The notes under the pieces: generated by a model
The model's database searches: none
Told to the model about the DNA's origin: nothing
What the model saw: the letters and a program-made list of their open reading frames with translations, nothing else
Assembly (NCBI GenBank): GCA_041946855.1
Contig: JBHGBE010000006.1
Span: forward strand, 16,999-80,998
Direction: 5' to 3'
Origin: Phycisphaerae bacterium
GTDB lineage: Bacteria; Planctomycetota; Phycisphaerae; SM23-33
Length of the DNA stretch: 64,000 bases
In this document: positions 35,665 through 55,346 of the stretch, in pieces
How positions within the stretch are numbered: position 1 is the stretch's first letter
Layout of the letters: each line of letters opens with the position of its first letter
Program-made: the position numbers and the translations under genes

Positions 35665-35687
35665 TGACGACGTTGGCAGTCAGGATG

Positions 35688-35798
35688 AAATACTCAATAA
35701 CCAATAAGCAATGTTCAATGTTCGGGTGCAAGAACACCTCCATCGTTGCACTTGTTCATTGGTCGTTGCTTGTTGAATATTGAATATTGGGTACTTGG
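35688..35798. repeat. AT-rich heptad/palindromic element (family 2, copy C) in the DUF1553-DUF1501 intergenic region
   Basis: CAATGTTCAATGTTC...(GTGCAA-loop-TTGCAC hairpin)...TTGAATATTGAATATTG, with mirror arms around the central hairpin. Confidence 0.5.
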
Positions 35799-35825
35799 AC
35801 ACGGGCCAGAGAGGAGAACGGTGCG

Positions 35826-37205: not shown

Positions 37206-37212
37206 AACCAAA

Positions 37213-37278
37213 AGGCGGAATGTAGAAGGCAGAAGGATAGAAGAAGGCAGAAGGCACAATGCAGAATTCAGAAGGCAC
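37213..37278. repeat. GCAGAAG/GGCGGAATG heptamer array immediately upstream of, and running into, the next gene's start
   Basis: AGGCGGAATGTAGAAGGCAGAAGGATAGAAGAAGGCAGAAGGCACAATGCAGAATTCAGAAGGCACAATG. Its imperfect reverse complement (CATTCTGCCTCTTGCATTTTGCC) lies in the signal-peptide coding region at 37326-37350. Confidence 0.5.
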
Positions 37279-37279
37279 A

Positions 37280-39562: not shown

Positions 39563-39841
39563 GACGCCTGCGCGGTCAGTCCGCCCGATACTTCGACGAG
39601 TTCCTGATTCAGGCGCAGACGCACTCGCCCTCAGAAACCACTTTCGCACTCTTGCACCTGTCCTCCCGGGCCCGAAGTGCCGCCTTGCCCGCGCGGGCGT
39701 CGGCGCAAGACACCGTCCCATCGCAGGCCGCACGGCCGTGAAGCTCCAGCACCCTCGACGCGTCGTGCATGAGGACGATCCGCGTGTTTGCCGCGCAGTA
39801 GCCCCCAGGGCGGCGCGTGCGCGGAATTTCTCCTTTTTCCA

Positions 39842-39868
39842 TTGCTTCGTTGTTTGGCGAAGTATAAT
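39842..39868 (+). promoter_or_regulatory. Sigma70-like promoter TTGCTT-15-TATAAT for the metalloid island
   Basis: Located in an AT-rich patch ~30 nt upstream of the DGC gene ATG (39898), whose Shine-Dalgarno is AGGAGA. Confidence 0.4.
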
Positions 39869-39897
39869 AATAGCGGCAATGGACATAGGAGAAAGCC

Positions 39898-40278
39898 ATG
39901 GCGAATTGCTCATGCGGCCCTGACGCCCGGAAGACGGTCCTGATCTACGCCTGTTCCGGCGGGGCCAACGTCGCCGAGATCGCGGACAAGGCCGCCCGCG
40001 AGCTGATGTTCGGCGGCTGCGGGTCGATGTTCTGCCTGGCCGGACTTGGCGCCGGCATACAGGGCATGATCCAGACGGCCAAGGACGCGGACGTGAATCT
40101 GGTGATCGACGGCTGCCCGATGGACTGCGCGAGGAAAGTCTTCGAGAAGGCCGGCATTGCCAACTACCGCTATGTCAAGGTGACCGACTTGGGCATCGAG
40201 AAGGCAAAGGGCGTCCGGGCCACGGATGAACAGGTCGCCAAGGTCGTGGCCAAGGTCAAGGAAGTTCTGGCCGGGTAG
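39898..40278 (+). CDS. DGC domain zinc-binding protein
   Basis: MANCSCGPD...LVIDGCPMDCARK: Cys pattern and the DGC signature. Confidence 0.65.
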   Translation: MANCSCGPDARKTVLIYACSGGANVAEIADKAARELMFGGCGSMFCLAGLGAGIQGMIQTAKDADVNLVIDGCPMDCARKVFEKAGIANYRYVKVTDLGIEKAKGVRATDEQVAKVVAKVKEVLAG

Positions 40279-40290
40279 AGGCATGGCCCG

Positions 40291-41112
40291 ATGAGCATGG
40301 GCGCATTAGTTGGCACGTTCCCGCGGCGCGGCGAGTTCGACAAGGCCAGGGCATGCCTGGACGCGCTGGGTCTGCCGCATGAGGTGATCTCGCCTGATCC
40401 CGCGTACTCCAGCGTCGGCGTGCCATCGCTCGCGCTGGATCAGGAGGCCCACAAGACGCTCTATGCAAGGTATCCGAACGCCTTCACCTGCTCGGGTTGG
40501 GTGGACTACCGGCCGGTCAAGGCCGCTGTTCCCGCCGAAGCCCCAAAGACCTACCTCGACGATGTGTTCGGCACTGCTGCGATCATGGTCCTGGCCCCAT
40601 GCGTGGCGGACACGGCGAAGATCCGCCTGATCGCCCACATATCGGGCGACCTGACCGAGGTCTTCCCCTACATGAACGCCGTGATGCGCGAGGCATCCTA
40701 CAACAAGGCCGGACCGACGTTCACGTTCATGGACGGCTACAGGATGGTCTCCGTATACCCGCGCCGGATCGCCGTCGCCAAGGCCGATGACATCGTGGAC
40801 GGCTGGCGAGTGCTGGAGGCCCTTCGCCGGAGGGCCAACGAGACCTGGCAGGCGCGAGCCGGTATCGAGCCATCCTACGAGATGCGCGAGAAGCCGCCGG
40901 CTCTGGAGATATTCAGACGCCTGCCCCGGACCAACTGCCGCTCGTGCGGCGAGCAGACCTGCCTGGCGTTCGCGGTCCGCGTCTACATGGGCGAGTTGCC
41001 GGCCGTGAGGTGCAGGCCGGTCTTCGTCGGGGAATTCCGACACCTGAAGGATGCACTGGTGGAGATATGCGCCGGCCTGGGCGTCGAGACTTCCGCGGCT
41101 GTAACAGGATGA
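40291..41112 (+). CDS. Putative Fe-S cluster-binding protein (C-terminal CX2CX4CX16C motif)
   Basis: C-terminal NCRSCGEQTCLAFAVRVYMGELPAVRC matches the 4-Cys Fe-S domain spacing exactly. The N-terminal region has no assignable family. Confidence 0.5.
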   Translation: MSMGALVGTFPRRGEFDKARACLDALGLPHEVISPDPAYSSVGVPSLALDQEAHKTLYARYPNAFTCSGWVDYRPVKAAVPAEAPKTYLDDVFGTAAIMVLAPCVADTAKIRLIAHISGDLTEVFPYMNAVMREASYNKAGPTFTFMDGYRMVSVYPRRIAVAKADDIVDGWRVLEALRRRANETWQARAGIEPSYEMREKPPALEIFRRLPRTNCRSCGEQTCLAFAVRVYMGELPAVRCRPVFVGEFRHLKDALVEICAGLGVETSAAVTG

Positions 41113-41143
41113 GCAAGGAAATCGACCATCTACGGAGAAGCTG

Positions 41144-41377
41144 ATGAAGAAGCTACAGATACTGGGAACGGGCTGCCCCAAGTGCAAGAAGCTGGCCGAG
41201 AACGCCGAGGCGGCGGCAAAGGCGATGGGCATCCAGTACACGATCGAGAAGGTCACGGACATCAACGAGATCATGAAGTTCGGCGTGATGATGACGCCCG
41301 CCCTGGCCGTGGACGGGGTGGTGAAGGTCGTGGGCAGGGTCCCCGACTCCGAGGCGATCAAGGCGATGCTCGGATAG
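41144..41377 (+). CDS. Small thioredoxin-family protein (redox-active disulfide protein 2-like, CPKC)
   Basis: 76 aa MKKLQILGTGCPKCKKLAENAE...; GGAGAAG Shine-Dalgarno upstream. Confidence 0.75.
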   Translation: MKKLQILGTGCPKCKKLAENAEAAAKAMGIQYTIEKVTDINEIMKFGVMMTPALAVDGVVKVVGRVPDSEAIKAMLG

Positions 41378-41394
41378 GTCCGTGGCCGCCAGGC

Positions 41395-41847
41395 ATGATG
41401 GCCAACAAGGAAAGGATTTCGGAAATGAGAAGATGGCTGCGAGAGCATGGATGCCTGTTCACGCTGTTTGCCCTGGCGGGCCTGTCCGGGCTGCTGGGGA
41501 CAGGTTGCCAGCAGGCCCAGACATCGAACCTGACATACCAGCCCACTGGCACGCCGCGTCTGGTGGAGCTTGGCACGGCCGCCTGCATCCCCTGCGCGTT
41601 GATGCGGCCGGGCCTGGACGAACTGAAGGCGCAGTACGCCGGGCGGCTTGAGGTGGAGGTCATCGACACGCTGTACGACCCCGGCGCGAAGACGCAGTAC
41701 AAGGCCCCCTTCTGCGCAACGCAGATATACATTGCGGCGTCGGGCAAGGAGCTGTACCGCCACGTCGGCTATGCGTCCAAGGAGGAGATACTTGCGAACT
41801 GGCGGCGACTGGGCGTGGACCTGACTGCTCCGCCGCCGCGGCAATAG
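41395..41847 (+). CDS. Thioredoxin-like lipoprotein (CIPC active site)
   Basis: Lipobox LLGTGC, then ...LVELGTAACIPCALMRPGLDELKAQYAGRLEVEVIDT... thioredoxin fold. Confidence 0.65.
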   Translation: MMANKERISEMRRWLREHGCLFTLFALAGLSGLLGTGCQQAQTSNLTYQPTGTPRLVELGTAACIPCALMRPGLDELKAQYAGRLEVEVIDTLYDPGAKTQYKAPFCATQIYIAASGKELYRHVGYASKEEILANWRRLGVDLTAPPPRQ

Positions 41848-41997
41848 CGGGTGCAGGCAGTGTCACAGACGATGCTCAGCCAGTGTCCTTGCAGCGGCGG
41901 CGGCGCGGGCGGGGCCGCCGCGTGGCTCGCCCTGGCCGTGGGCCTGGGCGCGTGGCTGCTCGTCCGATACGTCTGGAACAAGGAAGGTGCTTCAGTC

Positions 41998-43275
41998 ATG
42001 GGCAAGATCGGAAAGATCGCAATTGTCGTCCTGTTGGCTGTTGTGGTTGTCGCCATCGTCGTGATGAAGAACAGCGGCCCTTCGGCGCCGCCCGCGCAGG
42101 CGCCCGTCCAAGCAGCCGGGCTGCCACGCCTGGTCGACCTTGGCTCCACCACATGCATCCCGTGCAAGATGATGGCCCCGGTCCTGGAGGAATTGGCAAG
42201 AGAATACGCCGGCCGGATGCGGGTTGAGTTCATCAATGTCCAGGAGAACCCCGACGCGGCCAAGCCCTACGGCATCAAGCTGATCCCCACCCAGGTGTTC
42301 TACGACGCCTCCGGCGCGGAGATAGACCGCAACGAGGGCTTCATCTCCAAGGAGGACATCCTGGCGAGGTTCGGGGCGAAGGGAATTCTGTTCGCCGCCC
42401 CGCCTCCGGCCGCCTCCCAGCCGGCCGACGCTCCGGCCTTTGAGCGGCTTGAGCCCGCCCAGGCGGATACACGGGCCAAGGACGCCATCTGCTTCATGTG
42501 CGACCGCGATATCTCCCCCAAGACGCTGGTGGTCGTCAGGAGCGACAAGGGCGACGTCCGCCTGTGCGGCCCGCACTGCTTCTTCATCATGTACTCCTGC
42601 CTGACGGAGGACAAGACGGGCCTTGAGAAGAAGGTCTCCGTCACCGATTGGGCGACGGGCAAGCTGGTTGCGGCGACGGAGGCGACCTACCTCTACGGCC
42701 TGGACGCCGGGACAGGCCGTCCGACGATCAGAGCGTTCGCGGAAAAGGACGCCGCCGGCGCGGAGCTGAAGGCGTCGGGCGGCAGCCTGATCGGCTGGCA
42801 AGTGCTGCGGGACAAGGAACTGGAGAACCGTTGCGGGTTCTGCGATCGCGCCTGCTACCCGGCCGATTCGGCGAAGGTCACGGTCGGCGGCCTGAGCACG
42901 CTCGGATGCTGCTCGCACTGCGCGCTAGGCGTGGCCGCCCGTACGGGCAAGGACATCGAGGTCCACGAGCGGGACCGCCTGACCGGCGAAGAGATCGTCG
43001 TGAAGACCGCCGACGGCGGCGTGGCCTCGATCCAGCCGGCCACGGCCGTCGCGTGGTTCGGCCTGCGCAAAGGCGCGGACGGCAAGTTCGCGTCGGCAGG
43101 CTGCTTCCACCAGGGCTTCTTCGTCAACGCGGACAACCTGAGAAAGTGGGTCGAACAGAATCCATTGGAGACCGGCAGGCTTATCACCATACAGCAGGCA
43201 TTGGCCGACAAGATGAAGCTTACCGCCCAGCAGATTCAGAAGGCGTGCAAGATCGGCCAGTGCGCCCCCAAGTAG
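41998..43275 (+). CDS. Membrane-anchored thioredoxin-domain protein fused to two TRASH/YHS-like metal-binding domains
   Basis: TM anchor, Trx fold with CIPC (LVDLGSTTCIPCKMMAPVLEELAREYAGRMRV). Then CFMC-x21-CGPHC and CGFC-x21-CCSHC, each matching C-x2-C-x19-22-C-x3-C. AAGGAAGG Shine-Dalgarno upstream. Confidence 0.65.
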   Translation: MGKIGKIAIVVLLAVVVVAIVVMKNSGPSAPPAQAPVQAAGLPRLVDLGSTTCIPCKMMAPVLEELAREYAGRMRVEFINVQENPDAAKPYGIKLIPTQVFYDASGAEIDRNEGFISKEDILARFGAKGILFAAPPPAASQPADAPAFERLEPAQADTRAKDAICFMCDRDISPKTLVVVRSDKGDVRLCGPHCFFIMYSCLTEDKTGLEKKVSVTDWATGKLVAATEATYLYGLDAGTGRPTIRAFAEKDAAGAELKASGGSLIGWQVLRDKELENRCGFCDRACYPADSAKVTVGGLSTLGCCSHCALGVAARTGKDIEVHERDRLTGEEIVVKTADGGVASIQPATAVAWFGLRKGADGKFASAGCFHQGFFVNADNLRKWVEQNPLETGRLITIQQALADKMKLTAQQIQKACKIGQCAPK

Positions 43276-43314
43276 GCATCAACGGACCGAAACGCGAAGA
43301 AAGCGAGCAAGACA

Positions 43315-44256
43315 ATGAGAGTATTCAGCATCACGACGGCGTTCCTGGCCCTGGGAGTTCTGTGCGCTCAGGCTGCCGACAAGCCCGCGGCGGCTCCGGC
43401 GCCTGCGGCCGCGTCGCAGCCGGCGTCCGTCAACGACGCCTACCCCGAACTTGCCACAAGCGGCCTGACCTTCTCCCGGCTTGCCGACCTTCCCAAGGGC
43501 ACGCTCCTGAAGGCGGGCGACATGACAATCACGGACAAGCAGATCGCCGACGAGATCGCCAAGGCGCCGAAGGATGTCCAGGACCAGCTCAGGAAGAACG
43601 CCTTCTTCCTCCTGGAGCAGATGGCGACCAAGGCCCTGCTGCTCAAGGAGGCCAAAGCCGATGCGGGCAAGGAACCGGCGGCGGGCGACGACAGCACCCT
43701 CATCCAGGGCTACCTGGGCAAGCTGGCGGACAAGGTGAAGATCAGCGACGGCGAAGTCTCGGAGTTCTACAAGAACAATAAGGACGCCGTGGGCGGCGCC
43801 GAGCTGGACAAGGTCAAGCCCCAGATCGTCCAGTACCTGCGCCAGGAGAAGGCCCAAGTGCTGATCTGGCAGCACGTCAAGGCCCTGGGGCAGCGCACGG
43901 CCATCGAGGTCTCGGCGGCGTGGGCCAAGGAGCAGGCCGTGCTTGCCAAGGACAACCCCGTGGACAAGGCCCGCGCCAGCGGCAGGCCGTCGCTCGTGGA
44001 CTTCGGCTCCAAGGGCTGCAAGCCCTGCGACATGCTCGCCCCGATCCTGGCGACGCTCAAGACAAGGTACGAGGGCAAGGCCAACGTTCTGTTCGTGTCT
44101 GTGGTCGAGGAGCGGATACTGGCCGCGCGCTACGGGATCAGCTCGATTCCCGTCCAGGTCTTCTACGACAAGGACGGTAAGGAAGTATCCCGCCACGTGG
44201 GATTCTACCCGCAGGAGGAAATCGAGAAGGAGATGGCCAAGCTCGGAGTGAAGTAG
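43315..44256 (+). CDS. Periplasmic thioredoxin-like protein (CKPC) with N-terminal chaperone-like domain
   Basis: Signal peptide MRVFSITTAFLALGVLCAQAAD and a C-terminal Trx fold ...LVDFGSKGCKPCDMLAPILATLKTRYEGKANVLFV.... Confidence 0.65.
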   Translation: MRVFSITTAFLALGVLCAQAADKPAAAPAPAAASQPASVNDAYPELATSGLTFSRLADLPKGTLLKAGDMTITDKQIADEIAKAPKDVQDQLRKNAFFLLEQMATKALLLKEAKADAGKEPAAGDDSTLIQGYLGKLADKVKISDGEVSEFYKNNKDAVGGAELDKVKPQIVQYLRQEKAQVLIWQHVKALGQRTAIEVSAAWAKEQAVLAKDNPVDKARASGRPSLVDFGSKGCKPCDMLAPILATLKTRYEGKANVLFVSVVEERILAARYGISSIPVQVFYDKDGKEVSRHVGFYPQEEIEKEMAKLGVK

Positions 44257-44955
44257 ATGGAGCAGCTCTTCACAACCCTGACCCGTGCCGTCGAGGGCGC
44301 GCCGGCGATAGCCCTGGGCGCTTCCTTCATCTGGGGCATACTGAGCATACTTCTCAGTCCGTGCCATCTGTCGAGCATCCCGCTGATTGTCGGGTTCATC
44401 GACCAGCAGGGGCGGGTCTCTCCGCGAAGGGCGTTCGGCATATCCGGCCTGTTCGCCGTTGGGATTCTCATCACGATCGCGGCGATCGGCGCGGTCACGG
44501 CCGCCGCCGGGCGGATGATGGGCGATGTCGGCCGGTACGGCAACTATGTCATCGCGGGGCTCTTCTTCCTCGTCGGCCTGGTCCTGCTGGATGTGATCCC
44601 CATGCCATTTTCCGGCCCCGGCGCGGTGGGCCTGAAGCGCAAGGGGTTTTTGGCCGCCTTCATCCTTGGCCTGGTGTTCGGCGTGGCCCTGGGCCCATGC
44701 ACTTTCGCGTACATGGCGCCGATGCTGGGCGTCACCTTCAAGCTGGCGGCGGCGAATGTGGTGTATGGGGTCGCCCTGCTGGCCGCCTACGGCGTGGGAC
44801 ACTGCTCGGTGATCGTCCTGGCCGGCACATCGACCGGCTGGGTGCAGAAGTACCTGAACTGGAATGAGAAGTCCAGGGGCGCGGTCATCCTCAAGAAGGT
44901 CTGCGGCCTGCTGGTGCTGGCCGGCGGGGTGTACCTGATATACGTGGCCGGATGA
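44257..44955 (+). CDS. ccdA: Cytochrome c-type biogenesis protein CcdA / DsbD-like transmembrane electron transporter
   Basis: Polytopic membrane protein with two conserved Cys (...LLSPCHLSSIPL... and ...ALGPCTFAYMAPML...). Its start abuts the preceding stop. Confidence 0.8.
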   Translation: MEQLFTTLTRAVEGAPAIALGASFIWGILSILLSPCHLSSIPLIVGFIDQQGRVSPRRAFGISGLFAVGILITIAAIGAVTAAAGRMMGDVGRYGNYVIAGLFFLVGLVLLDVIPMPFSGPGAVGLKRKGFLAAFILGLVFGVALGPCTFAYMAPMLGVTFKLAAANVVYGVALLAAYGVGHCSVIVLAGTSTGWVQKYLNWNEKSRGAVILKKVCGLLVLAGGVYLIYVAG

Positions 44956-44982
44956 GCCTGGGTTGAGTCGAGGAATGCAGTA

Positions 44983-46533
44983 ATGATCAGTTGGAAGACG
45001 GAATGGAAGAAGCTGCTGGCCATCGTGGTTGTGTTCCTGGCCTTCCTCTGGCTTCCGCTGGGCTGGAGCCGTTTTGACAACGCGGTCACGGAGGCACTGG
45101 CCCTGGCCAAGTGGTACGCCCAGGAGCACGTTCTGCTGTGCCTGGTGCCTGCCTTCTTCATCGCCGGCGCTATCGGCGTGTTCGTCAGCCAGGCTTCCGT
45201 GATGAAGTACCTTGGGGCCAGGGCCAACAAGGTGATGGCCTACGGCGTGGCGGGCGTATCAGGCACGATCCTGGCCGTCTGCTCCTGCACCGTCCTTCCG
45301 CTGTTCACGGGCATCTATCGCATGGGGGCCGGATTGGGCCCCGCCATCGCGTTCCTCTACTCCGGGCCGGCCATCAGCGTCCTGGCCATTGTGCTCACCG
45401 CCCGGATTCTCGGCCCGGAGCTGGGCATCGCCCGCGCCGTCGGGGCCGTCAGCTTCAGCGTCATCATCGGCCTGGCCATGCACTTCATCTACCGCAAGGA
45501 GGAGATCCAGAAGGCCAACGGGCAGATGGCCATGCCGGAACCGGAGGTCAAGCGCCCGCTGTGGCAGAACGCGGCATTCTTCGCCGCCCTGGTGGGCATC
45601 CTCGTCTTCGCCAACTGGGCCAGGCCCGCTGAAGTTCGCGTAACGGTCATCGACCACCACGGCGACTCGACCACCTACGGGGGGATCATCGAGCGACAGG
45701 ACGAAGGCTCGATCCAGCTACGAGGCTACGTGCAGGCAAGCGCCGGCTTGTCGGCGGCGGCAGTATTCGAGATCCCGCGGGCCGGCGCCGCGGTCGAACC
45801 GGCGGGGGGGGCTTGGTGGGCCCTATTCCACGCCAAGTGGTTCATCACCGGCGCTCTGGCGGCTGCATTAGGGCTTATTCTGGTCTTCTGGTTCGGCCTG
45901 AGATGGTGGAAGGTCGCCGCGGCCGGCCTGCCGGCGGCGGTCCTTGCGGTCATCCTGCCCACTGACGGCCTTATGGTGATGGTCCCCTTCGCCGCGGCGG
46001 TCCTGGGGCTGTCGGCAATCACCAGCACCGACAAGGGCGAGGCAGGCGAGTGGTTCGCCTCCACGTGGGCCTTCGCCAAACAGATAATGCCTTTGCTGCT
46101 CGTGGGTGTGCTGGTCGCGGGGTTCCTGCTGGGGCGGGTTGGCAAGGAAGGCATTATCCCCAGCCAATACGTGCGGATGCTCGTCGGCGACAAGCCGGAC
46201 ACGTTCCTGTCCATGACCGCCCTGGCCGGCGGCTCGTCGGAGGCGTTCATCCGGACGATCTGGCCGGTCTGGACGAACTTCTTCGCCTCGGTCTTCGGGG
46301 CGTTCATGTACTTCGCCACGTTGACCGAGGTGCCGATCGTCCAGGGCCTGATCGGCTCGGGCATGGGCAAGGGGCCGGTCCTGGCGCTGCTGCTGTCGGG
46401 CCCGAGCCTGTCGCTGCCGAGCATGCTGGTGATCGCCAGCGTGCTGGGCGCCAGGAAGACGGCGGTCTATGTGACGCTGGTGATCGTCCTGTCCACGGCG
46501 GCCGGGATGATCTTCGGCGCGGTCTGGGGTTAG
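44983..46533 (+). CDS. ArsP-like permease (DUF318/PF03773) with ~120-aa internal insertion
   Basis: Conserved ...AVCSCTVLPLF... Cys motif in the N-terminal repeat and ...GGSSEAFIRTIWPVW... C-terminal repeat. An extra TM-containing insert separates the two halves. Confidence 0.65.
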   Translation: MISWKTEWKKLLAIVVVFLAFLWLPLGWSRFDNAVTEALALAKWYAQEHVLLCLVPAFFIAGAIGVFVSQASVMKYLGARANKVMAYGVAGVSGTILAVCSCTVLPLFTGIYRMGAGLGPAIAFLYSGPAISVLAIVLTARILGPELGIARAVGAVSFSVIIGLAMHFIYRKEEIQKANGQMAMPEPEVKRPLWQNAAFFAALVGILVFANWARPAEVRVTVIDHHGDSTTYGGIIERQDEGSIQLRGYVQASAGLSAAAVFEIPRAGAAVEPAGGAWWALFHAKWFITGALAAALGLILVFWFGLRWWKVAAAGLPAAVLAVILPTDGLMVMVPFAAAVLGLSAITSTDKGEAGEWFASTWAFAKQIMPLLLVGVLVAGFLLGRVGKEGIIPSQYVRMLVGDKPDTFLSMTALAGGSSEAFIRTIWPVWTNFFASVFGAFMYFATLTEVPIVQGLIGSGMGKGPVLALLLSGPSLSLPSMLVIASVLGARKTAVYVTLVIVLSTAAGMIFGAVWG

Positions 46534-46638
46534 GCCGCGACCTCGTCGCGCAAGGCCCCAGCAGCGGCCGGCGCCGGCGCGGCGGCCTTCGTATAATGGT
46601 CCTGGGTTTGTTCAACGTGATCATGTGAGACTATCGAG

Positions 46639-47805
46639 ATGGCACAGGGCAACGTTCGTCGCATCTTCAGGTTAGCTTGGAAGCTGGCGCTGATAGCGGC
46701 CATCGCCGGCGCAGTTGTGTACTACGTTCGCTTTCGCCCCGTGCCGGTAAAGGCATTCGTCGTCAAGGCGGACACCGTGCAATCGGAGGTCATGGGCACC
46801 GGCGTGCTGGACGCCCGCACGAAGATCACGATCAGCTCCAAGATCACCGGCCGGATCGCGTCACTGGGCGCTGACCAGAACGATCCGGTGTCCAAGGACA
46901 TGCTCCTGGCGACGCTGGACGACAGCGATCTGCGCCAGCAAGTGGAGATGGCCACCGCAAGCCTGGAGGCCACCAAGGCGTCCCTTGTACGAGTCGAAGC
47001 CGACATCGCCCGCGCTCAAGCCGTCCTGACCCAGGCACGGTTGGACCATGACCGTTCATCGGAACTGCTCCAGAAGCATGTCGCCTCAAAGGATGAGGTG
47101 GACAAGGCCAAGGAGGCGCTCGATGTTGCCCAGGCGGGGCTCGACAGCAGCAAGGCCGCCAAGGTTGAAGCGGAGCACCAGGTGGTGACGGCCGAGCGGA
47201 CGCTCAAGTATCAGCAGGCGTGCCTGGCGTACACCAGGATCCTCTGTCCGGTGGACGATGGCTTGGTGACTTTCCGCTACCGCGAGGTCGGGGACATCGT
47301 GGTTCCGGGCACCGCCATCATGGACGTGGTGTGCCTAAAGGAAATGTGGGTATCGGCCTGGGTGGATGAATCCGCGTCGGGCGCTCTGGCCGTCGGCCAG
47401 CCTGTCCGCGTGGTCTTCCGTTCGGAGCCCCAGAAGTCATATTCCGGCCAGGTCGCCCGTCTGGCAAAACAGACCGACCGCGAGACACGCGAGTTCCTGG
47501 TGGATGTCAGCGTGAAGGAATTGCCCAGGAACTGGTCGGTCGGCCAGAGGGCCGAGGTCTATATACAGACTGCCTCGAAGGCTGACGCCCTGGCCATCCC
47601 GCAGCAGGTGCTCCTCTGGCGCGACGGAAAGCCCGGCGTGTTCGTCGATGACGGCGGCAAGGCATTGTATCAGGAAGTCGGCCTGGGCCTCAAGGGGCGG
47701 GAGAGTGTCGAAGTCCTGCGCGGGTTGAACATCGGCCAGGCGGTCGTGACCGCCGCCGACGGGGACAACAGCAAGCTGACGGATGGGCGGGCGATCCAGC
47801 GATGA
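46639..47805 (+). CDS. Efflux transporter periplasmic adaptor subunit (HlyD/MacA family)
   Basis: TM anchor, coiled-coil hairpin and beta-barrel/lipoyl motifs; its stop overlaps the next start. Confidence 0.8.
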   Translation: MAQGNVRRIFRLAWKLALIAAIAGAVVYYVRFRPVPVKAFVVKADTVQSEVMGTGVLDARTKITISSKITGRIASLGADQNDPVSKDMLLATLDDSDLRQQVEMATASLEATKASLVRVEADIARAQAVLTQARLDHDRSSELLQKHVASKDEVDKAKEALDVAQAGLDSSKAAKVEAEHQVVTAERTLKYQQACLAYTRILCPVDDGLVTFRYREVGDIVVPGTAIMDVVCLKEMWVSAWVDESASGALAVGQPVRVVFRSEPQKSYSGQVARLAKQTDRETREFLVDVSVKELPRNWSVGQRAEVYIQTASKADALAIPQQVLLWRDGKPGVFVDDGGKALYQEVGLGLKGRESVEVLRGLNIGQAVVTAADGDNSKLTDGRAIQR

Positions 47806-49013
47806 ACCTGGCCCTCAAGGACATCAAGCACAATTTCGGGCGCTTCGCGCTGACGGCCATCGGCATCGGCCTGCTGCTCATGCTGGTCATGGGCATGGGC
47901 GGCATCTATCGCGGCCTTGTGGACGACGCCACGCTGCTGGTCAACCGCATCGGGGCAGACCTTTGGGTGGTGCAGAAGGAAACTCGCGGCCCGTTCACCG
48001 AGCTGTCCCGCATCCCCGCCAATATGGAAGACCGCGTGAGGGCAGTGCCCGGGGTGTTATTATCCAACGACTTTGTCTCCTACACCATCCAGCGCGAGCA
48101 AGGAGGCCGGACATTGCGGATGACGGTCCAAGGGCTTTCCTGGCCGCAGGACAAGGGAGCGTGGCTTCCTCTGGTCGCCGGGCGCGGACTGGCACAGGCC
48201 CACTACGAGATGATCGCGGATAGGTCGCTGGGCCTGCCCCTCGGAACTCGCATGGTGTTGGGGAAGGACACCTACACGGTCGTGGGTATCACGCGCAACA
48301 TGGCGTCCACCGCCGGCGACTCGATGATCTTCGTCACGTTGGCCGATTCCCAGGCCATCCAATACGACCAGTCCGGGGAGGCCGTGCGCCTGGAGCGGGA
48401 GGCACGGAAGGTCCGTGCCTCTGATTTTGATCCGGGCAGGATCGAACCGGGGATTCTGGACCGAGCGGCCGGGCCATCTTCGGGAATCCCCGCTCTGGGG
48501 CCGCCCCCCGTCAGCGCGGTGGTGGTGAAGGTAGCGCCGGGGGCAAACGCGGCCCAGGTGGCGGCCGCGATCGCCTCCTGGCCCGATGTCTCCGTCTACA
48601 CCGCCGACGCCCAGAAGCAGCTCCTGGTCAGCGGCATGGTGGACAAGTCCAGGCGGCAACTGGCCCTGTTCCGGGGGCTGCTCATCATCGTTTCGGCCAT
48701 CATCATGGCCCTGATCCTCTACACGCTCACCCTGGACAAGATACACGACATCGCGGTGCTCAAGCTCATGGGCGCCCGAAACCTTGTCGTCGTCAACCTG
48801 ATCCTCCAGCAGGCGCTGCTGCTGGGGACCATCGGCTACGGGATCGCCTACGGCATCGGCCAGTGGGTCTTCCCGGTCTTTCCTCGGCGCGTGCTGATCC
48901 TGGATGAGGACCTGTGGCTGCTGGCGGGGATCGTGCTGGGTATCTCCGTGCTGGCCAGCATGCTTGGCATCTGGCGGGCCATGAAGGTCCGGCCCAACGA
49001 GGTGATCGCCTGA
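47802..49013 (+). CDS. ABC transporter permease, FtsX/MacB-like
   Basis: MNLALKDIKHNFGRFALTAIGIGLL..., a large periplasmic domain and a C-terminal 3-TM FtsX fold. ATGA overlaps on both sides. Confidence 0.8.
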   Translation: MNLALKDIKHNFGRFALTAIGIGLLLMLVMGMGGIYRGLVDDATLLVNRIGADLWVVQKETRGPFTELSRIPANMEDRVRAVPGVLLSNDFVSYTIQREQGGRTLRMTVQGLSWPQDKGAWLPLVAGRGLAQAHYEMIADRSLGLPLGTRMVLGKDTYTVVGITRNMASTAGDSMIFVTLADSQAIQYDQSGEAVRLEREARKVRASDFDPGRIEPGILDRAAGPSSGIPALGPPPVSAVVVKVAPGANAAQVAAAIASWPDVSVYTADAQKQLLVSGMVDKSRRQLALFRGLLIIVSAIIMALILYTLTLDKIHDIAVLKLMGARNLVVVNLILQQALLLGTIGYGIAYGIGQWVFPVFPRRVLILDEDLWLLAGIVLGISVLASMLGIWRAMKVRPNEVIA

Positions 49014-49723
49014 TGGTCGAAACAGCCAATTGTCTGGCCGTCGAGGCGTCGGGCCTGACGAAGGTCTACGGCAGCGGGAACACAGAGGTGCAGGCCCTGC
49101 GCGGAGTGGATCTGTGCCTGGCGCGAGGAGAGGTCATCGCCCTGCTGGGTCCCAGCGGCGCGGGCAAGAGCACGCTCCTGACCGTCATCGGCCTGGTCAG
49201 CGAACCGACCGCCGGCCGGATCGCCATGGAAGGCAAGCCGGTGGTCACCGATGGCCGGTTCGTCGTCGACGTGCGGACATTCCGCCGGAGGCACATGGGC
49301 TTCGTGTTCCAGAAGGCCAACCTCATTCCGTTCCTTACGGCCGCCGAGAACGTCCGCGTGGCGATGGAGATCAACGACCAGTCGCCACGGGCGGCACGGC
49401 GCAGGGCGATGGAATTGCTGGAGTACCTGGGCGTGGCGGACCGCGCCGACCATTACCCCAACACGCTCTCCGGCGGGCAGCAGCAGCGAGTGGCCGTGGC
49501 GCGGGCGCTGGCCAACCAGCCCGGCCTTATCCTGGCCGACGAGCCGACGGCCGCCCTGGACAGCGTGCGCGGCCGGCAGGTCATGGAGCTGTTTCGCAAG
49601 GTTGCCCACGAGCGGCAGTCGGCGGTCCTGGTGGTCACGCACGATCACAGGGCCCTGGACGTGTTCGACCGGACGCTGGAGATGGAGGACGGGCTGATTC
49701 ACGGAAAGGCGGCCACAGTTTAG
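49013..49723 (+). CDS. ABC transporter ATP-binding protein (MacB/LolD-like)
   Basis: Walker [10 protein letters not shown], signature [15 protein letters not shown], Walker [12 protein letters not shown]. Confidence 0.85.
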
Positions 49724-49754
49724 TGCAGTCGCCGGGAAGATCTGAGAAAGAACG

Positions 49755-50153
49755 ATGAAAGCCAAGGCGGAGATTGATGCCGGAGTTTGCGGGTTCAAGA
49801 CCATCGCCGTTGCCACCTGCGACGACGAGCAGCACGTGAGGATCGACATTTACAGCGGGTGCGAGAAGGTCCGCGCCATGGCCGCTTCGTTGAAGGACAA
49901 TGGAGCGGTTGACGCGTACCAGGAGATCGGCCCGGCTGGGCGGAGCGTCGTGCTGAGCGCGGCCAAAGAGGCGCTCAAAGGCTGCTGCGCCGCGTGCGCG
50001 GCCCCGGTGGGCGTGTTCAAGGCGATGCAGGTCGCGGCCGGTTTGGCGCTTCCCAAGGACATCAGCATCGGACTCAGCAAAGTCGCGGACGAGTCCGGCG
50101 CGGACGCCTCCCGCGCCTGTTCCGGGGGCGTGCCCGAAGCCGGGAGGCAATGA
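49755..50153 (+). CDS. Small Cys-rich hypothetical protein
   Basis: 132 aa with 11 Cys (GVCGFK, VATCDDE, SGCEK, KGCCAACAAP, RACSGG). Its stop overlaps the arsR start. Confidence 0.45.
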   Translation: MKAKAEIDAGVCGFKTIAVATCDDEQHVRIDIYSGCEKVRAMAASLKDNGAVDAYQEIGPAGRSVVLSAAKEALKGCCAACAAPVGVFKAMQVAAGLALPKDISIGLSKVADESGADASRACSGGVPEAGRQ

Positions 50154-50512
50154 TGCGCGAAGTGATGGCGATAACGAAGGCCCTGGCCGATGAGAGCCGA
50201 TCGCGGATCGTGATGTTTCTCCGCGGCGGCGAGATGTGCGTCTGCCAGATCGTCGAGATGCTGCGCCTGGCCCCCTCCACTGTCTCCAAGCACCTGGACA
50301 TCCTATACCGGTCCGGGCTTGTCGAATCGCGCAAGCAGGGCCTTTGGGTCTACTACGGCCTGAGCGGCAAGCCCACGCCTTGCGTGAAGAAGGCGCTCGC
50401 GTGGCTCACGTCGTGCCTGGCGGACGACCCGCGGACGGCCGAGGATGACCGCCGTAGGAAGGCCGTCATGAAGATCGACAAGGAGAAGCTCTGCTGCCGG
50501 TATCGAGGCTGA
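50150..50512 (+). CDS. arsR: ArsR/SmtB family transcriptional regulator (As(III)-responsive type)
   Basis: ...GEMCVCQIVEMLRLAPSTVSKHLDILYRSGLV...: wHTH with the CVC metalloid-binding site. GGGAGG Shine-Dalgarno. Confidence 0.8.
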   Translation: MMREVMAITKALADESRSRIVMFLRGGEMCVCQIVEMLRLAPSTVSKHLDILYRSGLVESRKQGLWVYYGLSGKPTPCVKKALAWLTSCLADDPRTAEDDRRRKAVMKIDKEKLCCRYRG

Positions 50513-50526
50513 TTGCGAGGAATTGG

Positions 50527-50982
50527 ATGTCCGGCAAACTGAAGATTCTGTTCCTCTGCACCGGCAACTCCTGCCGAAGCCAGATGGCCGAGGGCTGGGC
50601 CCGCGCCTTGAAGGGCGACGTGATCGAGCCATCCTCGGCCGGAATCGAGGCATTCGGCCTCCATCCCCTGGCCGTCAAAGTGATGGCGGAGGCGGGAGTG
50701 GACATCTCGCGCCAGCGATCCAAGAACGTCGCGGAACTGGCCGAGGTCCCTTTCGATTACGTCGTCACCGTCTGCGGCCACGCGAACGAGTCGTGCCCCG
50801 CGTGGCTCGGACGGAAGGCCCGCGTCGTCCACGTCGGCTTCGACGACCCGCCGACGCTGGCGATGCACGCCAAATCCGAGGAAGAGGCCCTCGGCCACTA
50901 TCGCCGCGTGCGCGATGAGATCAAGGCGTTCATCCTCACGCTGCCGGGTGCGTTGAAACCCAACAAGGAGCGCAAGCTATGA
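50527..50982 (+). CDS. arsC: Arsenate reductase, LMW-PTP family (thioredoxin-coupled)
   Basis: P-loop [13 protein letters not shown] and downstream Cys pair [10 protein letters not shown]. Confidence 0.85.
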
Positions 50983-52115
50983 CCGAAGGTATCGCCAGGA
51001 AACTCTCCTTCCTCGACCGCTTCCTGACCCTGTGGATCTTCCTCGCGATGGCCGCCGGCGTGCTGCTTGGCTACGTCGCCCCGGCCGTCGGCGACTGGAT
51101 CGGCTCGCTCAAGCCCGAAGGCTCGCAGACCAGCATCCCCATCGCCGCGGGCCTCATCCTGATGATGTACCCGCCCCTGGCAAAGGTGAAGTACGAGGAG
51201 CTCGGCGACGTCTTCCGCAACGTCAAGGTCCTGGCCCTCTCGCTCCTCCAGAACTGGGTCATCGGCCCGATCCTGATGTTCGCCCTGGCCATCGCCTTTC
51301 TGCACGGCAGGCCGGCGTTCATGATCGGCCTGATCATGATCGGCCTGGCCCGCTGCATCGCCATGGTCATCGTCTGGAACGAGCTGGCCGAAGGCGACAC
51401 CGAGTACGCCGCCGGCCTTGTCGCCTTCAACTCGATCTTCCAGGTCTTCTTCTACAGCGTCTACGCCTGGCTGTTCATCACCGTCCTGCCGCCGATGCTC
51501 GGCTTGGCGGGCGCCGACACCTCCGCCATCACCATCGGCCAGATCGCCAAGAGCGTCTTGACCTACCTGGGCGTGCCGTTCCTGGCCGGCATGCTCACGC
51601 GGCTTGTGCTCGTCAAGGCCAAGGGCAAGGCCTGGTATCACGGCCGGTTCATCCCCAAGATCAGCCCGATCACGCTCGTCGCCCTGCTCTTCACCATCGT
51701 GGTCATGTTCTCGATGCAGGGCCGCAAGATTATCGACCGCCCCGGCGACGTGCTGCTGATCGCACTGCCGCTACTGATCTATTTCGTAGTCATGTTCCTG
51801 TCGAGCTTCTGGATGAGCTGGAAGGCCGGCGCCGGCTACGCGCGGAGCGCGACGCTGTCCTTCACGGCCGCCAGCAACAACTTCGAGCTGGCCATCGCCG
51901 TGGCCGTCGGCGTCTTCGGCATCCACCACGGCGCGGCGTTCGCGGCCGTCATCGGCCCGCTCGTCGAAGTGCCGGTCCTCATCGGCCTGGTGAACGTGAG
52001 CCTGTGGCTCAAGCGCAGGTGGTTCGCCGGCGAGGCCGCCCAGATCCAGGGCGTCGGTGCGTGCGCCACCGGCGGCCGGCCCATCCTCAATAGAGACAAA
52101 GTTCCAGAGCAATGA
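50979..52115 (+). CDS. acr3: Arsenite efflux transporter, ACR3 family
   Basis: 10-TM BART-superfamily sequence with ...[22 protein letters not shown]...; ATGA overlap with arsC. Confidence 0.85.
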
Positions 52116-52140
52116 ACCAGCAAGTTGAAGGAGCCACGAA

Positions 52141-52992
52141 ATGACAGAGCTCAACGCCCACGAAGTCGTCAAGAACGCCTACGCCGAGGTCGCCCGCAGG
52201 CAGTCATCCTGCTGCGGACCGAGCAAGTCCTGTTGCGACGACAGAAAGCCCTACACCGTGCCAGATCATCCCGTGCCGGAGTCGGAGCTGGGCCTGTCGT
52301 GCGGGAACCCGCTGGCCTTCGGGCACATCAAGCCCGGCGACGTGGTGCTGGACCTGGGCAGCGGGGCCGGCAAGGATGTCTTCCTGGCCGCTCAGAAGGT
52401 GGGCGACGCCGGCCGTGCCATCGGCGTGGACATGACGCCCGAGATGCTCGTCCTGGCCCGCAAGAACGCCGTCAAGTTCTTCGCGACCACCGGCCTGGCC
52501 AACGTCGAGTTCCGCCAGGGGCAGATCGAGTCCCTGCCCGTGGACGATGGCTCGGTGGACGTGGTGATCTCCAACTGCGTCATCAACCTCTCGCCCGACA
52601 AGCCGCGGGTCTTCCGCGAGGTGCATCGCGTCCTCAAGTCCGGCGGCCGAATGGTCGTCAGCGACATCGTGCTCAACCGGCCGCTGCCGGAGGCCGCCCG
52701 CGAAGACGCCGACCTGTACTCTTCCTGCATCGGCGGGGCGCTGCTGCGCGATGACTACCTCGCGGCCGTCCGCGCCGCCGGGTTCGTCAGAGTGGAAGTG
52801 CTGTCCGACACGACGTACGGTGCCTCGCGTGCGAACGTGGCGTGCAACGATCCCATCCTCGCCGCCGCGACCGGCGGGAACGACTCGGCCTGTGGCGACA
52901 CGGCCGGCGACACGTCCGCTGGCGACAAGGCCGCCCCGGCCGATGCCTTGGCCGGCGTCGCGGCCAGCATCACCGTACTGGCCGTGAAATGA
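52141..52992 (+). CDS. arsM: Arsenite S-adenosylmethionine methyltransferase
   Basis: N-terminal Cys pairs SSCCGPSKSCCDD, SAM motif VLDLGSGAGKDVF, catalytic Cys in VISNCVINL. Confidence 0.85.
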   Translation: MTELNAHEVVKNAYAEVARRQSSCCGPSKSCCDDRKPYTVPDHPVPESELGLSCGNPLAFGHIKPGDVVLDLGSGAGKDVFLAAQKVGDAGRAIGVDMTPEMLVLARKNAVKFFATTGLANVEFRQGQIESLPVDDGSVDVVISNCVINLSPDKPRVFREVHRVLKSGGRMVVSDIVLNRPLPEAAREDADLYSSCIGGALLRDDYLAAVRAAGFVRVEVLSDTTYGASRANVACNDPILAAATGGNDSACGDTAGDTSAGDKAAPADALAGVAASITVLAVK

Positions 52993-54959: not shown

Positions 54960-54997
54960 CTGCTCGGCCGTGGCGAAGGGGCGCTTGGCCGGCAGGT

Positions 54998-55122
54998 CGG
55001 ATTGTGGATGGCGGATTGCGGATTGCGGATTGATCGCCTGGACGGCCGGCGGAGCTTTCGCGGCGGGCTTGCCCGGCTTGGCCGGAGGCGATTTCGGATT
55101 TCGGATTTCGGATTTCGGATTG
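54998..55122. repeat. Two tandem CGGATT(G/T) heptamer arrays (x5 and x4.5) in the top6B / GT2 divergent region
   Basis: TCGGATTGTGGATGGCGGATTGCGGATTGCGGATTGA (54998-55034) and CGATTTCGGATTTCGGATTTCGGATTTCGGATTG (55089-55122). The unit is identical to the feoB-internal element. Confidence 0.6.
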
Positions 55123-55346
55123 CCCGCCGCAAGCGCTTTGGCGGCCCTCTTGTCGGCCCTTGGTCCCTCGTCGCTAGTCCCTAGTCGCTTACTTGGCTTC
55201 TTGGCCATCCGTGGCGTCCCTGATGTTGAAGGTCTGCACATCAACTTCCAGCGTAATCTATGCGGTTTGCACCCGGCCGTCAAGCGATGGCAATTGCGGT
55301 CCGCCTGGAGGTTTTCACGCCCGCCGGTGCGCGGTATCATGTGCTA

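Follow-up and report, generated by a model that had tools for sequence, protein, structure and literature searches.

A predicted periplasmic thioredoxin-TRASH/MerB-like fusion protein in a CcdA-containing arsenic gene cluster of a Phycisphaerae bacterium

Gene content and regulatory features of the cluster

The gene cluster described here occupies positions 39842-52992 (13 kb) of a 64,000-nt stretch of DNA, hereafter called the window, whose numbering is used for all coordinates. The window derives from a Phycisphaerae bacterium (Planctomycetota; Phycisphaerae; SM23-33; assembly GCA_041946855.1) and corresponds to positions 16,999-80,998, forward strand, of contig JBHGBE010000006.1. Genes were called from the GC content at third codon positions (GC3) and maps of open reading frames (ORFs), and domains were assigned with Pfam and NCBIfam. 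Sixteen ORFs with coding-type GC3, g1 to g16, were found between 39898 and 52992, all on the + strand. In this order they encode a DGC-domain protein, an Fe-S protein, a small thioredoxin, a second thioredoxin, a thioredoxin fusion (g5), a further thioredoxin, a CcdA-type membrane protein, an ArsP-family permease, a MacB-type pump with its adaptor, a DUF6951 protein and the products of an arsR-arsC-acr3-arsM set. The basic parts are already known from ars operons and what is added here is a variant centred on g5, the most distinctive part of the cluster and the one that sets this variant apart.

An initial annotation, made from the sequence without database searches, had listed 17 genes with overlapping or abutting boundaries on a single strand. 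The single strand was confirmed but the count came to 16, a 17th ORF being obtained only if the first 42 codons of g5 are counted separately, and the spacing between genes (-4 to +39 nt) was as tight as claimed with the sole exception of a 105-nt gap between g8 and g9. The limits proposed for the cluster fell precisely on the first base of a TTGCTT hexamer (39842) and on the last base of the arsM stop codon (52992). Searches with Pfam and NCBIfam models also bore out the list of domains (DGC, Fe-S, four thioredoxin folds, CcdA, ArsP_1, MacB-type pump parts, ArsR, ArsC, Acr3 and ArsM), so that the gene list was essentially right, although DUF6951 (g12) and the TRASH/MerB-like fusion of g5 had been overlooked. 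The four thioredoxin folds, encoded by g3 to g6, carry the motifs CPKC, CIPC, CIPC and CKPC, respectively; the first lacks a signal sequence and is cytoplasmic, and the other three have a signal or an anchor.

The g5 gene (41872-43275) encodes a fusion protein of 467 aa, predicted to be periplasmic and membrane-anchored, in which two transmembrane (TM) helices (residues 14-35 and 42-67) are followed, in the predicted topology, by high-confidence soluble domains. These are a thioredoxin domain (86-169, with C95-IP-C98), a TRASH/NosL-like domain (approximately 195-317, with C207-x2-C210 and, 21 residues later, C232-x3-C236) and a TRASH/MerB-like domain (approximately 318-457, with C321-x2-C324, 21 residues, C346, C347-x2-C350 and then C411), and the protein ends in a tail containing C459-x4-C464. 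Translation from an alternative start at 41998 (Met43) would lose the first helix. The preceding 42 codons (41872-41997) form an in-frame extension with a QCPCSGG motif and the extra TM helix, which is kept in many Phycisphaerae homologues and absent from others; it could be a periplasmic Cys tail specific to the lineage or else a mini-ORF of its own, possibly the 17th gene of the initial annotation.

Both C-terminal domains of g5 carry a copy of the TRASH motif, CX2C-X19-22-CX3C (Ettema 2003, as cited in PMC8261052), formed by C207/C210/C232/C236 and C321/C324/C346/C350, each with a spacer of 21 residues. The two domains share their register weakly (BLAST E 0.07, hhalign E 0.015), and an internal duplication was not retained as their origin on such values. 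The match to NosL (PF05573) reached 19.9 bits, below the 24-bit threshold, and two homologues have a precomputed PF05573 hit. The MerB catalytic-core fold is present in g5, whose residues 335-444 matched the Pfam MerB family PF03243 with 63.8 bits (threshold, 27 bits). The importance of the catalytic triad for MerB has been stated (PMC8261052), and the positions of Cys96, Asp99 and Cys159 of this triad are occupied in g5 by C347, Cys350 and C411. Replacement of Asp99 by cysteine was found in 56 out of 56 homologues and, moreover, every cysteine at the MerB-site positions as well as the CxxxxC tail is invariant across phyla. A library search with the C-terminal half of g5 delineated a compact family of 133 clusters at 50% identity.

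Assignment of g5 to MerB and mercury resistance was nevertheless rejected, on account of the Asp99 to Cys change, the absence of a mer context and scores well below the NCBIfam MerB cutoffs (29.4 versus 200 bits for NF033555 and 25.4 versus 193 bits for NF009710). MerB is cytoplasmic and mer-encoded, whereas the MerB-like domain of g5 follows two TM helices and a thioredoxin domain and is encoded next to CcdA, and no mer genes recur in the 81 related loci described below. The NCBI pipeline (PGAP) labels three g5 homologues (P0022, P0085 and P0093) as organomercurial lyase. A first Planctomycetes metagenome-assembled genome with a 'merB' has been reported (PMC9948709). Because Asp99 is Cys in g5 and its context is arsenic, surveys of merB based on PF03243 may miscount g5 homologues, and Pfam-based merB counts in anoxic habitats rich in the Planctomycetota-Verrucomicrobiota-Chlamydiota (PVC) group may be inflated by this family. 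TRASH, NosL and MerB belong to a related group of metal-binding folds (PMC4999995) and g5, with intact TRASH Cys4 motifs within a MerB fold, is a candidate living intermediate on the TRASH-to-MerB path proposed from structures.

The genes surrounding g5 encode a set of thiol-redox proteins. The product of g7 (44257-44955; 232 aa) is a CcdA-type membrane protein of the DsbD family (PF02683, 40.8 bits versus a 27.1-bit threshold). Its transmembrane redox cysteines C36 and C148, one per TM segment, are retained in 60 of 60 homologues and a further pair, C183 and C216, is conserved as well, all four cysteines being found in 57-60 of the 60. By these family criteria g7 would be an electron conduit of the CcdA/DsbD_TM type; it failed the ArsG model NF040495 (43.9 bits, cutoff 200). 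An exported or anchored thioredoxin fold of 150 aa with a CIPC motif is encoded by g4 (41395-41847), which matched PF00085 weakly and is a paralogue of the g5 thioredoxin domain (83.6 bits to g5); its N-terminal hydrophobic segment ends in LLGTGC. The g6 product (43315-44256; 313 aa) has a C-terminal thioredoxin domain with CKPC (PF00085, 46 bits), a Sec signal that, as read from the sequence, ends in AQA/AD, and a helical N-terminal domain faintly similar to those of peptidyl-prolyl isomerase chaperones (Rotamase_2, below threshold). The presence of a periplasmic thiol-reducing relay composed of CcdA and three exported thioredoxin-fold proteins, as put forward in the initial annotation, was thus corroborated at the level of genes.

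Three further genes belong to this part of the cluster. The small cytoplasmic thioredoxin-like protein g3 (41144-41377; 77 aa; PF13192) belongs to the MTH895/ArsE family, also named redox-active disulfide protein 2, with 108 bits to TIGR00412 (cutoff, 62 bits) and a CPKC motif, and its CxxC is retained in 65 of 66 homologues. The cytoplasmic DGC-domain protein g1 (39898-40278; 126 aa; PF08859, 104 bits) has five cysteines (Cys6, 19, 46, 73 and 77) invariant in 37-38 of 38 homologues and no match among NCBIfam models or PDB sequences. It is not a diguanylate cyclase, since the GGDEF domain was not matched and PF08859, a Cys-rich putative metal-binding fold, was the only family found. The product of g2 (40291-41112; 273 aa) combines an N-terminal domain, for which a fold search returned only the generic TBP-like fold, with a C-terminal CFeSP-type [4Fe-4S] domain (PF04060; C216, C219, C224 and C241); its homologues occur in the same kinds of clusters as the cassette. 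In the closest relative (L084, 8777-9253) the slot of g2 is filled by a gene with a TrmO_N domain (YaeB-like), which elsewhere adjoins a g2 homologue (L088, 7522-8004; also listed for L025 and L059), a puzzling occurrence of a tRNA-methyltransferase-like fold in an arsenic cassette.

The permease g8 (44983-46533; 516 aa) is a member of the ArsP_1 family (PF03773, 203.6 bits) with a vicinal cysteine pair in a TM segment, C100-S-C102, which is invariant in 52 of 52 homologues (C53, C100 and C102 in 50-52 of 52), and with a large insertion between its two halves. The nearest curated NCBIfam models, those of the Cu/Zn efflux family SO_0444 (100 versus 300 bits) and SaoE (94 versus 325 bits), were matched below cutoff. 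Family membership would make g8 an exporter of methylarsenite, MAs(III); two types of arsP with possibly different functions have been distinguished (PMC6205960, PMC2963123). When g8 was compared with plasmids by tblastn, only a minimal unit of ArsR, redox-active disulfide protein 2 and permease was found, on a Leptolinea plasmid.

Downstream of g8, three genes encode the parts of a MacB-type pump: a periplasmic adaptor or membrane-fusion protein (g9, 46639-47805; TIGR01730, 165 bits versus a 94.9-bit cutoff; HlyD_3/HlyD_D23), a MacB-type (type VII ABC) permease with a periplasmic core and an FtsX domain (g10, 47802-49013; PF12704, 52 bits; PF02687, 42 bits) and, as a separate polypeptide, an ABC ATPase of the DevA/LolD/MacB class (g11, 49013-49723; PF00005, 124 bits; DevA family, 231 bits, below cutoff). 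The g10 gene overlaps g9 by 4 nt and is in turn overlapped by g11 by 1 nt. An outer-membrane factor gene was found neither at 39.8-53.0 kb nor among the annotated flanking genes, and could be encoded elsewhere in the genome. For this reason the MacAB-type components announced by the initial annotation were recovered and the word tripartite was not.

The last five genes include the canonical arsR-arsC-acr3-arsM core, which was upheld. The ArsR/SmtB repressor g13 (50150-50512; start at 50150 or 50153) scored 86 bits with NF033788 (cutoff, 55 bits) and has a CVC motif where it would bind DNA and, at the C-terminus, a CC pair, being of the same type as the ArsRs preceding ArsC/Acr3 in other loci. 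The arsenate reductase ArsC (g14, 50527-50982) is of the thioredoxin-coupled, low-molecular-weight protein tyrosine phosphatase type (1jl3, E 1.8e-30); it stays below the TIGR02691 equivalog cutoff (134 versus 174 bits) but its Cys10, Cys82 and Cys89 align to 1jl3. The arsenite efflux permease Acr3 (g15, 50979-52115; TIGR00832, 440.8 versus 282.8 bits) and the As(III) S-adenosylmethionine methyltransferase ArsM (g16, 52141-52992; NF008823, 287.3 versus 263 bits) pass their curated cutoffs, as does ArsR, and the cysteine motifs of g16, read from the sequence, are CC near the N-terminus, SCGNP, SNCVINL and SSCIGGA. Ahead of arsR, g12 (49755-50153) encodes a small Cys-rich DUF6951 protein (PF22263, 92.6 bits) of 132 aa instead of the usual 110, whose 22-aa C-terminal extension overlaps arsR; a PDB sequence search with it returned nothing. 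DUF6951 also occurs in minimal ArsR-DUF6951-Acr3 operons (L089, 7001-7333; L090, 592-924) and between ArsR and ArsC in two other loci (L038 and L046). The protein is apparently linked to ars genes and as yet undescribed, and it might serve Acr3 as an arsenite chaperone.

A non-coding stretch of 335 nt precedes g1 and its final 70 nt or so are AT-rich (GC 0.40 at 39825-39897 versus 0.65 overall). This putative regulatory region (39827-39894, + strand) contains TTGCTT (39842-39847) and TATAAT (39863-39868), separated by a spacer of 15 nt, because of which the pair was missed by a consensus scan that found no sigma-70 site on the + strand. Promoter and terminator scans gave counts not above those of shuffled sequence. 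Both hexamers are bracketed by a 19-nt inverted repeat (39827-39845 and 39876-39894; 89% complementary, arms 30 nt apart) whose second arm spans the ribosome-binding site of g1, GGAGAAA. The repeat is a candidate operator, or else a 5' structure occluding this ribosome-binding site.

Within the 105-nt gap between g8 and g9, a GC-rich hairpin (46552-46589, + strand) overlaps a perfect TATAAT (46583-46588), the feature as a whole being delimited at 46552-46588, and no T-run follows the hairpin. This element is a possible internal promoter or a possible RNA processing or stability element, which would split the cluster into two expression units. Since this second TATAAT follows the hairpin inside the cluster, the single AT-rich upstream promoter of the initial annotation is confirmed as to the AT-rich patch and is plausible as to its being single. 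The 39.8-kb and 46.6-kb regions have no 8-mer in common on either strand, which ruled out a shared operator, and no known RNA elements were detected at 39.4-53.4 kb with E values up to 0.1.

Recurrence of the cassette in related genomes

A scan of one genome per species yielded at least 589 stretches encoding g5 relatives, some of them covering the thioredoxin part only. The best 80 of these came from Planctomycetota (Phycisphaerae, Sedimentisphaerales, Pirellulales and Brocadiaceae), Verrucomicrobiota, Lentisphaerae, Hydrogenedentota, Riflebacteria, Sumerlaeota and Armatimonadota. Loci were then fetched and annotated with the 16 window proteins; linkage was counted on the 33 loci flanked on each side by 4 kb or more, and wider counts were made on 81 loci.

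A recurrent same-strand cassette emerged, consisting of ArsR, ArsP, a small thioredoxin, optionally DGC, the g5 homologue, optionally a g6-like thioredoxin, and CcdA, which often adjoins ArsR-ArsC-Acr3-ArsM. Beside the g5 homologue, ArsR and the small thioredoxin were each present in 30 of the 33 well-flanked loci, CcdA in 28 and ArsP in 27 (82-91%). DGC was found in 18 of the 33 (55%), at a median distance of 23 nt from the g5 homologue, and homologues of g6 lay directly 3' of it in 13 loci, separated from it by a median of 4 nt. One or more of ArsC, Acr3 and ArsM occurred in 20 of the 33 loci (61%), with ArsC in 14 and acr3 in 17, and pump genes in 6-8 (about a fifth); in three Verrucomicrobiota loci (L048, L051 and L052) CcdA is separated from the g5 homologue by the pump genes. 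Gene order was shuffled between loci, a pattern that favours selection on the set of genes over inherited synteny. The coupling of CcdA and exported thioredoxins to ArsP, Acr3, ArsM and ArsC, suggested by the initial annotation, is therefore conserved in many genomes, in rearranged orders, and the survey excludes random association.

When the unlabelled ORFs of the 81 loci were clustered, no recurrent mer (merA, merT, merP, merR), cop (copA, copZ) or P-type ATPase genes appeared, the ars genes being the sole recurrent metal-specific genes. Other recurrent families were an FMN_red flavoprotein with a Tat signal, true ArsG (271 bits), AhpD-like proteins and, in 9 loci, RND (resistance-nodulation-division) pumps. 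The flavodoxin-like FMN_red protein, of about 235 aa, occurs in 28 of the 81 loci, with an RR motif in 28 of 29 copies, and is absent from the window. Examples lie in L001 (12184-12885), L085 (8007-8726) and L087 (10644-11339), and no electron donor is obvious for such a periplasmic flavoprotein. Small AhpD/CMD-like proteins with CxxC and Cys-rich C-terminal tails (CCPG...KKCCG) are encoded in L039 (7249-7590) and in 7 other Verrucomicrobiota loci; in NCBIfam they are related to the AhpD domains found in fusion with ArsM among selenoprotein variants.

Among the 81 loci, proteins of the CcdA type (DsbD_TM) were found in 62 and those of the true ArsG type (DsbD_2; NF040495, 270.9 bits) in 10, never both in the same locus. 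Never co-occurring, the two types are substitutes, which suggests that they do the same job next to an exported thioredoxin and calls into question the label of efflux permease given to ArsG. Two cassettes devoid of the MerB-like domain (L087 and L088) keep two exported thioredoxins together with a DsbD-family protein.

The closest relatives of the window (78% identity; L084 and L085) have the cassette with no adjacent arsRC-acr3-arsM, and in both of them unannotated ORFs of 124-146 aa hold the slot of g4 and correspond to it in position. The ArsR heading their cassettes is of a distinct type, with CVC and PCx7C thiolate motifs, and has no counterpart in the window. An ArsR pseudogene upstream of g1, considered as an explanation for this absence, was rejected after an empty tblastn search and the finding of no nucleotide similarity to the upstream region of L084.

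Possible role in arsenic detoxification

From the gene content, domain architecture, predicted topology, invariant cysteines and conserved linkage described above, we infer a direction of electron flow, the binding of arsenicals by g5 and their hand-off to the pump. Quite possibly, the cluster encodes an ArsR-controlled envelope arm of arsenic detoxification, which would keep a periplasmic thiolate site reduced in order to capture exported trivalent arsenicals and might pass them to the MacB-type pump. Judged by family membership, ArsR would sense, ArsC would reduce arsenate and ArsM would methylate arsenite in the cytoplasm, and trivalent arsenicals, inorganic and organic, would leave for the periplasm through Acr3 and the permease of the ArsP family, with g3 and the DGC protein g1 as putative cysteine-rich partners of the permease. 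CcdA and DsbD proteins pass electrons to periplasmic thioredoxin-like proteins, and g7 would likewise draw reducing equivalents from a thioredoxin-type donor in the cytoplasm and deliver them across the membrane to the thioredoxin domains of the exported g4, g5 and g6. The thioredoxin domain of g5 may then keep reduced the adjoining all-cysteine TRASH/MerB-like site and the CxxxxC tail. As(III) favours tri-thiolate sites; with the thiolates of g5 maintained in the reduced state by the relay, capture of thiophilic As(III) and RAs(III) in the periplasm would become possible, and periplasmic dithiols would be shielded. Where a MacB-type pump is present, as here, the arsenical bound to g5 could be handed on and expelled from the periplasm.

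Several points weigh against this scheme. The roles attributed to all its members are deduced from sequence, and the four TRASH cysteines of g5 could merely hold structural zinc. The relay has at least one other client, since exported thioredoxins and a protein of the DsbD family are retained in cassettes devoid of the MerB-like domain. About 40% of the well-flanked loci, including the closest relatives of the window, have none of ArsC, Acr3 and ArsM within reach; the PF03773 family includes Cu/Zn exporters, and CVC-type ArsR sensors are not arsenic-specific. The pump occurs in only about 20% of the loci and has no linked outer-membrane factor gene. Finally, the window lacks the cassette-type ArsR, and the possible internal promoter separates g1-g8 from g9-g16.

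Thiol protection and repair alone, which the initial annotation had also proposed, is the main rival to this scheme, though rather unlikely. The relay and the chaperone-like g6 would restore periplasmic dithiols (apocytochromes, Dsb/Ccm) attacked by exported trivalent arsenicals, and the C-terminal domains of g5 would be zinc-stabilised modules for client binding or structure. TRASH Cys4 sites are classically zinc sites (PMC4999995), accessory genes of the related loci encode thiol/peroxide redox proteins (OsmC, Redoxin/AhpC-TSA, AhpD-like) and the persistence of exported thioredoxins and a DsbD protein in cassettes with no MerB-like domain fits as well, but the MerB-site cysteines and CxxxxC tail invariant across phyla, the fusion of a MerB fold to thioredoxin and the insertion of a periplasm-facing MacB pump within the module are left unexplained. 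Alternatively, organoarsenicals might be transformed enzymatically in the envelope, by an ArsEFG-like reduction of nitro groups or pentavalent forms through the relay (and, elsewhere, the Tat-exported flavoprotein) or by an O2-independent protonolysis of the C-As bond in the MerB-like domain, which would fit the ArsE-family membership of g3, the replacement of CcdA by true ArsG in 10 loci and the flavoprotein in 28 of the 81. MerB cleaves carbon-metal bonds with no oxygen, g5 keeps its fold and both catalytic cysteines, and ArsE and ArsF confer organoarsenical resistance (PMC9144182). We consider it improbable nonetheless, given that the proton-donating Asp99 is Cys in all 56 homologues, that the flavoprotein and ArsG are absent from the window and that ArsM of the same operon builds the very bond that a lyase would cleave. 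As for the periplasmic reduction of arsenate, also raised in the initial annotation, nothing points there, the sole arsenate reductase being the cytoplasmic thioredoxin-type ArsC.

Equally improbable is a role of the cassette in handling another thiophilic metal (Hg, Cu, Cd, Zn), with g5 as a NosL/MerB-type handler of Cu or Hg and g8 as a Cu/Zn-type exporter, standing beside ars genes only through shared ArsR-type sensors. The organomercurial lyase label of g5 homologues, SO_0444 and SaoE as the NCBIfam families best matched by g8, the weak NosL match of g5, the RND pumps in 9 loci and the roughly 40% of loci with no canonical ars genes nearby would agree with it; set against them are the lack of recurrent mer or cop genes in the 81 loci, compared with ArsC, Acr3 or ArsM in 61% of the well-flanked ones, NCBIfam MerB scores of 25-29 bits versus cutoffs of 193-200, the loss of Asp99 and the predicted export of a domain that is cytoplasmic in MerB. 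It is very improbable that the redox proteins serve, as suggested by Castillo and Saier, to supply electrons to cytoplasmic ArsC (and ArsM) and that they have no periplasmic function: ArsC is indeed thioredoxin-coupled here, and arsC was present in 7 of 8 such operons in the 2010 survey (PMC2963123), but export signals or anchors are found on three of the four thioredoxin folds, CcdA conducts through the membrane and ArsC is nearby in only 14 of the 33 cassettes, and the inconsistency was noted by Castillo and Saier themselves. A chance juxtaposition of unrelated operons, to which the 105-nt gap with its possible internal promoter and the lack of adjacent arsRC-acr3-arsM in L084 might point, is refuted by the survey and retains next to no likelihood, since dozens of species-level genomes, drawn from several phyla, have this gene set in varying orders and acr3 lies in 17 of the 33 loci versus well under 1% of random 20-kb windows by our estimate.

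Within the scheme of a reduced periplasmic capture site, a more specific proposal is that the all-cysteine, MerB-derived domain of g5 is a dedicated arsenical handler, either chaperoning As(III)/MAs(III) through its thiolates or acting as an O2-independent C-As lyase, reduced by a CcdA/ArsG-type conduit and feeding the MacB-type pump. We regard this as doubtful. If true, arsenic detoxification would gain a periplasmic, trans-envelope arm, and the so-called ArsG permeases would be transmembrane electron conduits.

Contrary to what the initial annotation held, the basic architecture had already been described. Redox gene families in ars operons were noted in 2010, and two closely related systems followed, ArsEFG in 2019 and the SAO locus in 2022. 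A survey published in 2010 (PMC2963123) found three redox gene families inside ars operons in 8 instances, usually with arsC and often with arsP, and suggested that CcdA might carry electrons through the membrane, leaving the function open. The MerB/TRASH-like fusion, DGC, the MacB-type pump, DUF6951 and the PVC-wide distribution are unmentioned there. NCBIfam names the family of the small thioredoxin MTH895/ArsE and a DsbD_2 family ArsG after arsEFG, genes reportedly described in Shewanella putrefaciens 200 by Chen, Zhang and Rosen in 2019. To our knowledge, ArsEFG includes no MerB-like protein. Resistance to organoarsenicals is the role for which the genes of ArsE, ArsF and ArsG are cited (PMC9144182). 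The present cluster resembles them in the ArsE-family g3 and in having a DsbD-superfamily membrane protein in an ars context, and departs from them in that g7 is not an ArsG, a protein described as an aminobenzylarsenical efflux permease and not as an electron conduit, and in the lack of an ArsF-like or flavoprotein gene in the window.

The SAO locus of anaerobes, whose function was inferred from genomics (Haft & Gwadz 2022, bioRxiv 10.1101/2022.07.06.499078), shares with the cluster a MerB-like protein, SaoE as an exporter of the ArsP family with a CSC motif, the small thioredoxin-like SaoT and, comparable to DGC, the DsrE-like Cys protein SaoD. Unlike g5, its SaoL is a cytosolic selenoprotein with Cys/Asp/Sec at the MerB site; its ABC system is for uptake, with binding proteins, whereas the MacB type found here is for export; and it lacks CcdA, exported thioredoxins and ars genes. 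Apart from the below-cutoff SaoE score of g8, no Sao model matched the cluster proteins. From MerB, MerB2 and NosL, g5 differs by the Asp99 to Cys change, the predicted periplasmic location, the membrane anchor, the fused thioredoxin and its position outside a mer operon.

In the CcdA-ResA/CcmG/TlpA and TlpA-ScoI/PcuC systems, a DsbD-family conduit reduces an anchored periplasmic thioredoxin, which in turn reduces the metal-binding cysteines of a client. The cluster is similar to these relays in its conduit and anchored thioredoxin and unlike them in the fused client, the three parallel thioredoxins and a context of arsenic resistance instead of cytochrome or oxidase assembly. With the MacAB-TolC/DevBCA pumps (type VII ABC), a class taking periplasmic substrates, it shares the adaptor, the MacB_PCD/FtsX permease and the ATPase; it differs from them in having its ATPase on a polypeptide of its own and in lacking a linked gene for an outer-membrane factor. 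CusF-CusCBA offers an analogy, with a periplasmic binder beside a trans-envelope pump, although a hand-off in the present case is purely conjectural.

Our literature search found no description of a periplasmic thioredoxin-TRASH/MerB-like fusion as a conserved partner of CcdA or ArsG, nor of how widely it is distributed in the PVC group and phyla close to it, of the recurrence of a MacB-type pump, of the flavoprotein exported by Tat or of the mutual exclusivity of CcdA and ArsG. Reviews of ars systems cover cytoplasmic and inner-membrane steps only, and in one of them (PMC6205960) the word periplasm is not used. The g5 fusion provides a concrete periplasmic client, and with it a testable hypothesis, for the CcdA and thioredoxin genes that have stood unexplained in ars operons since 2010. 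The mutual exclusivity of CcdA and ArsG means that the assignment of ArsG as an efflux permease deserves re-examination.

Flanking genes

The genes flanking the cluster, of a kind typical of planctomycetes, are PSCyt2/PSD1, DUF1501, PPC and topoisomerase VI-B genes, and the GC content of the cluster (0.653) equals that of the whole window (0.654). Acquisition as a horizontally transferred genomic island, implied by the term composite island in the initial annotation, is thus unsupported, because the composition does not deviate from the rest of the window and mobility genes are absent from the flanks (tRNA borders were not searched for). Downstream, the cluster is ended by a topoisomerase VI-B-like gene convergent to arsM (53277-55340, - strand), which encodes a protein of 687 aa with the B-subunit transducer and GHKL ATPase domains (PF09239, 181 bits); topoisomerase VI-B being mainly archaeal and eukaryotic, its presence in a bacterial Phycisphaerae genome may be noteworthy. 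Upstream (33805-39562) lie genes for a PSCyt2/PSD1 (DUF1549/DUF1553) protein, a DUF1501 protein and a 767-aa protein with a PPC domain. PSCyt2/PSD1 and DUF1501 form a widespread planctomycete gene pair of unassigned function, which also adjoins the cassette in L001, at approximately 18.7-21.4 kb.

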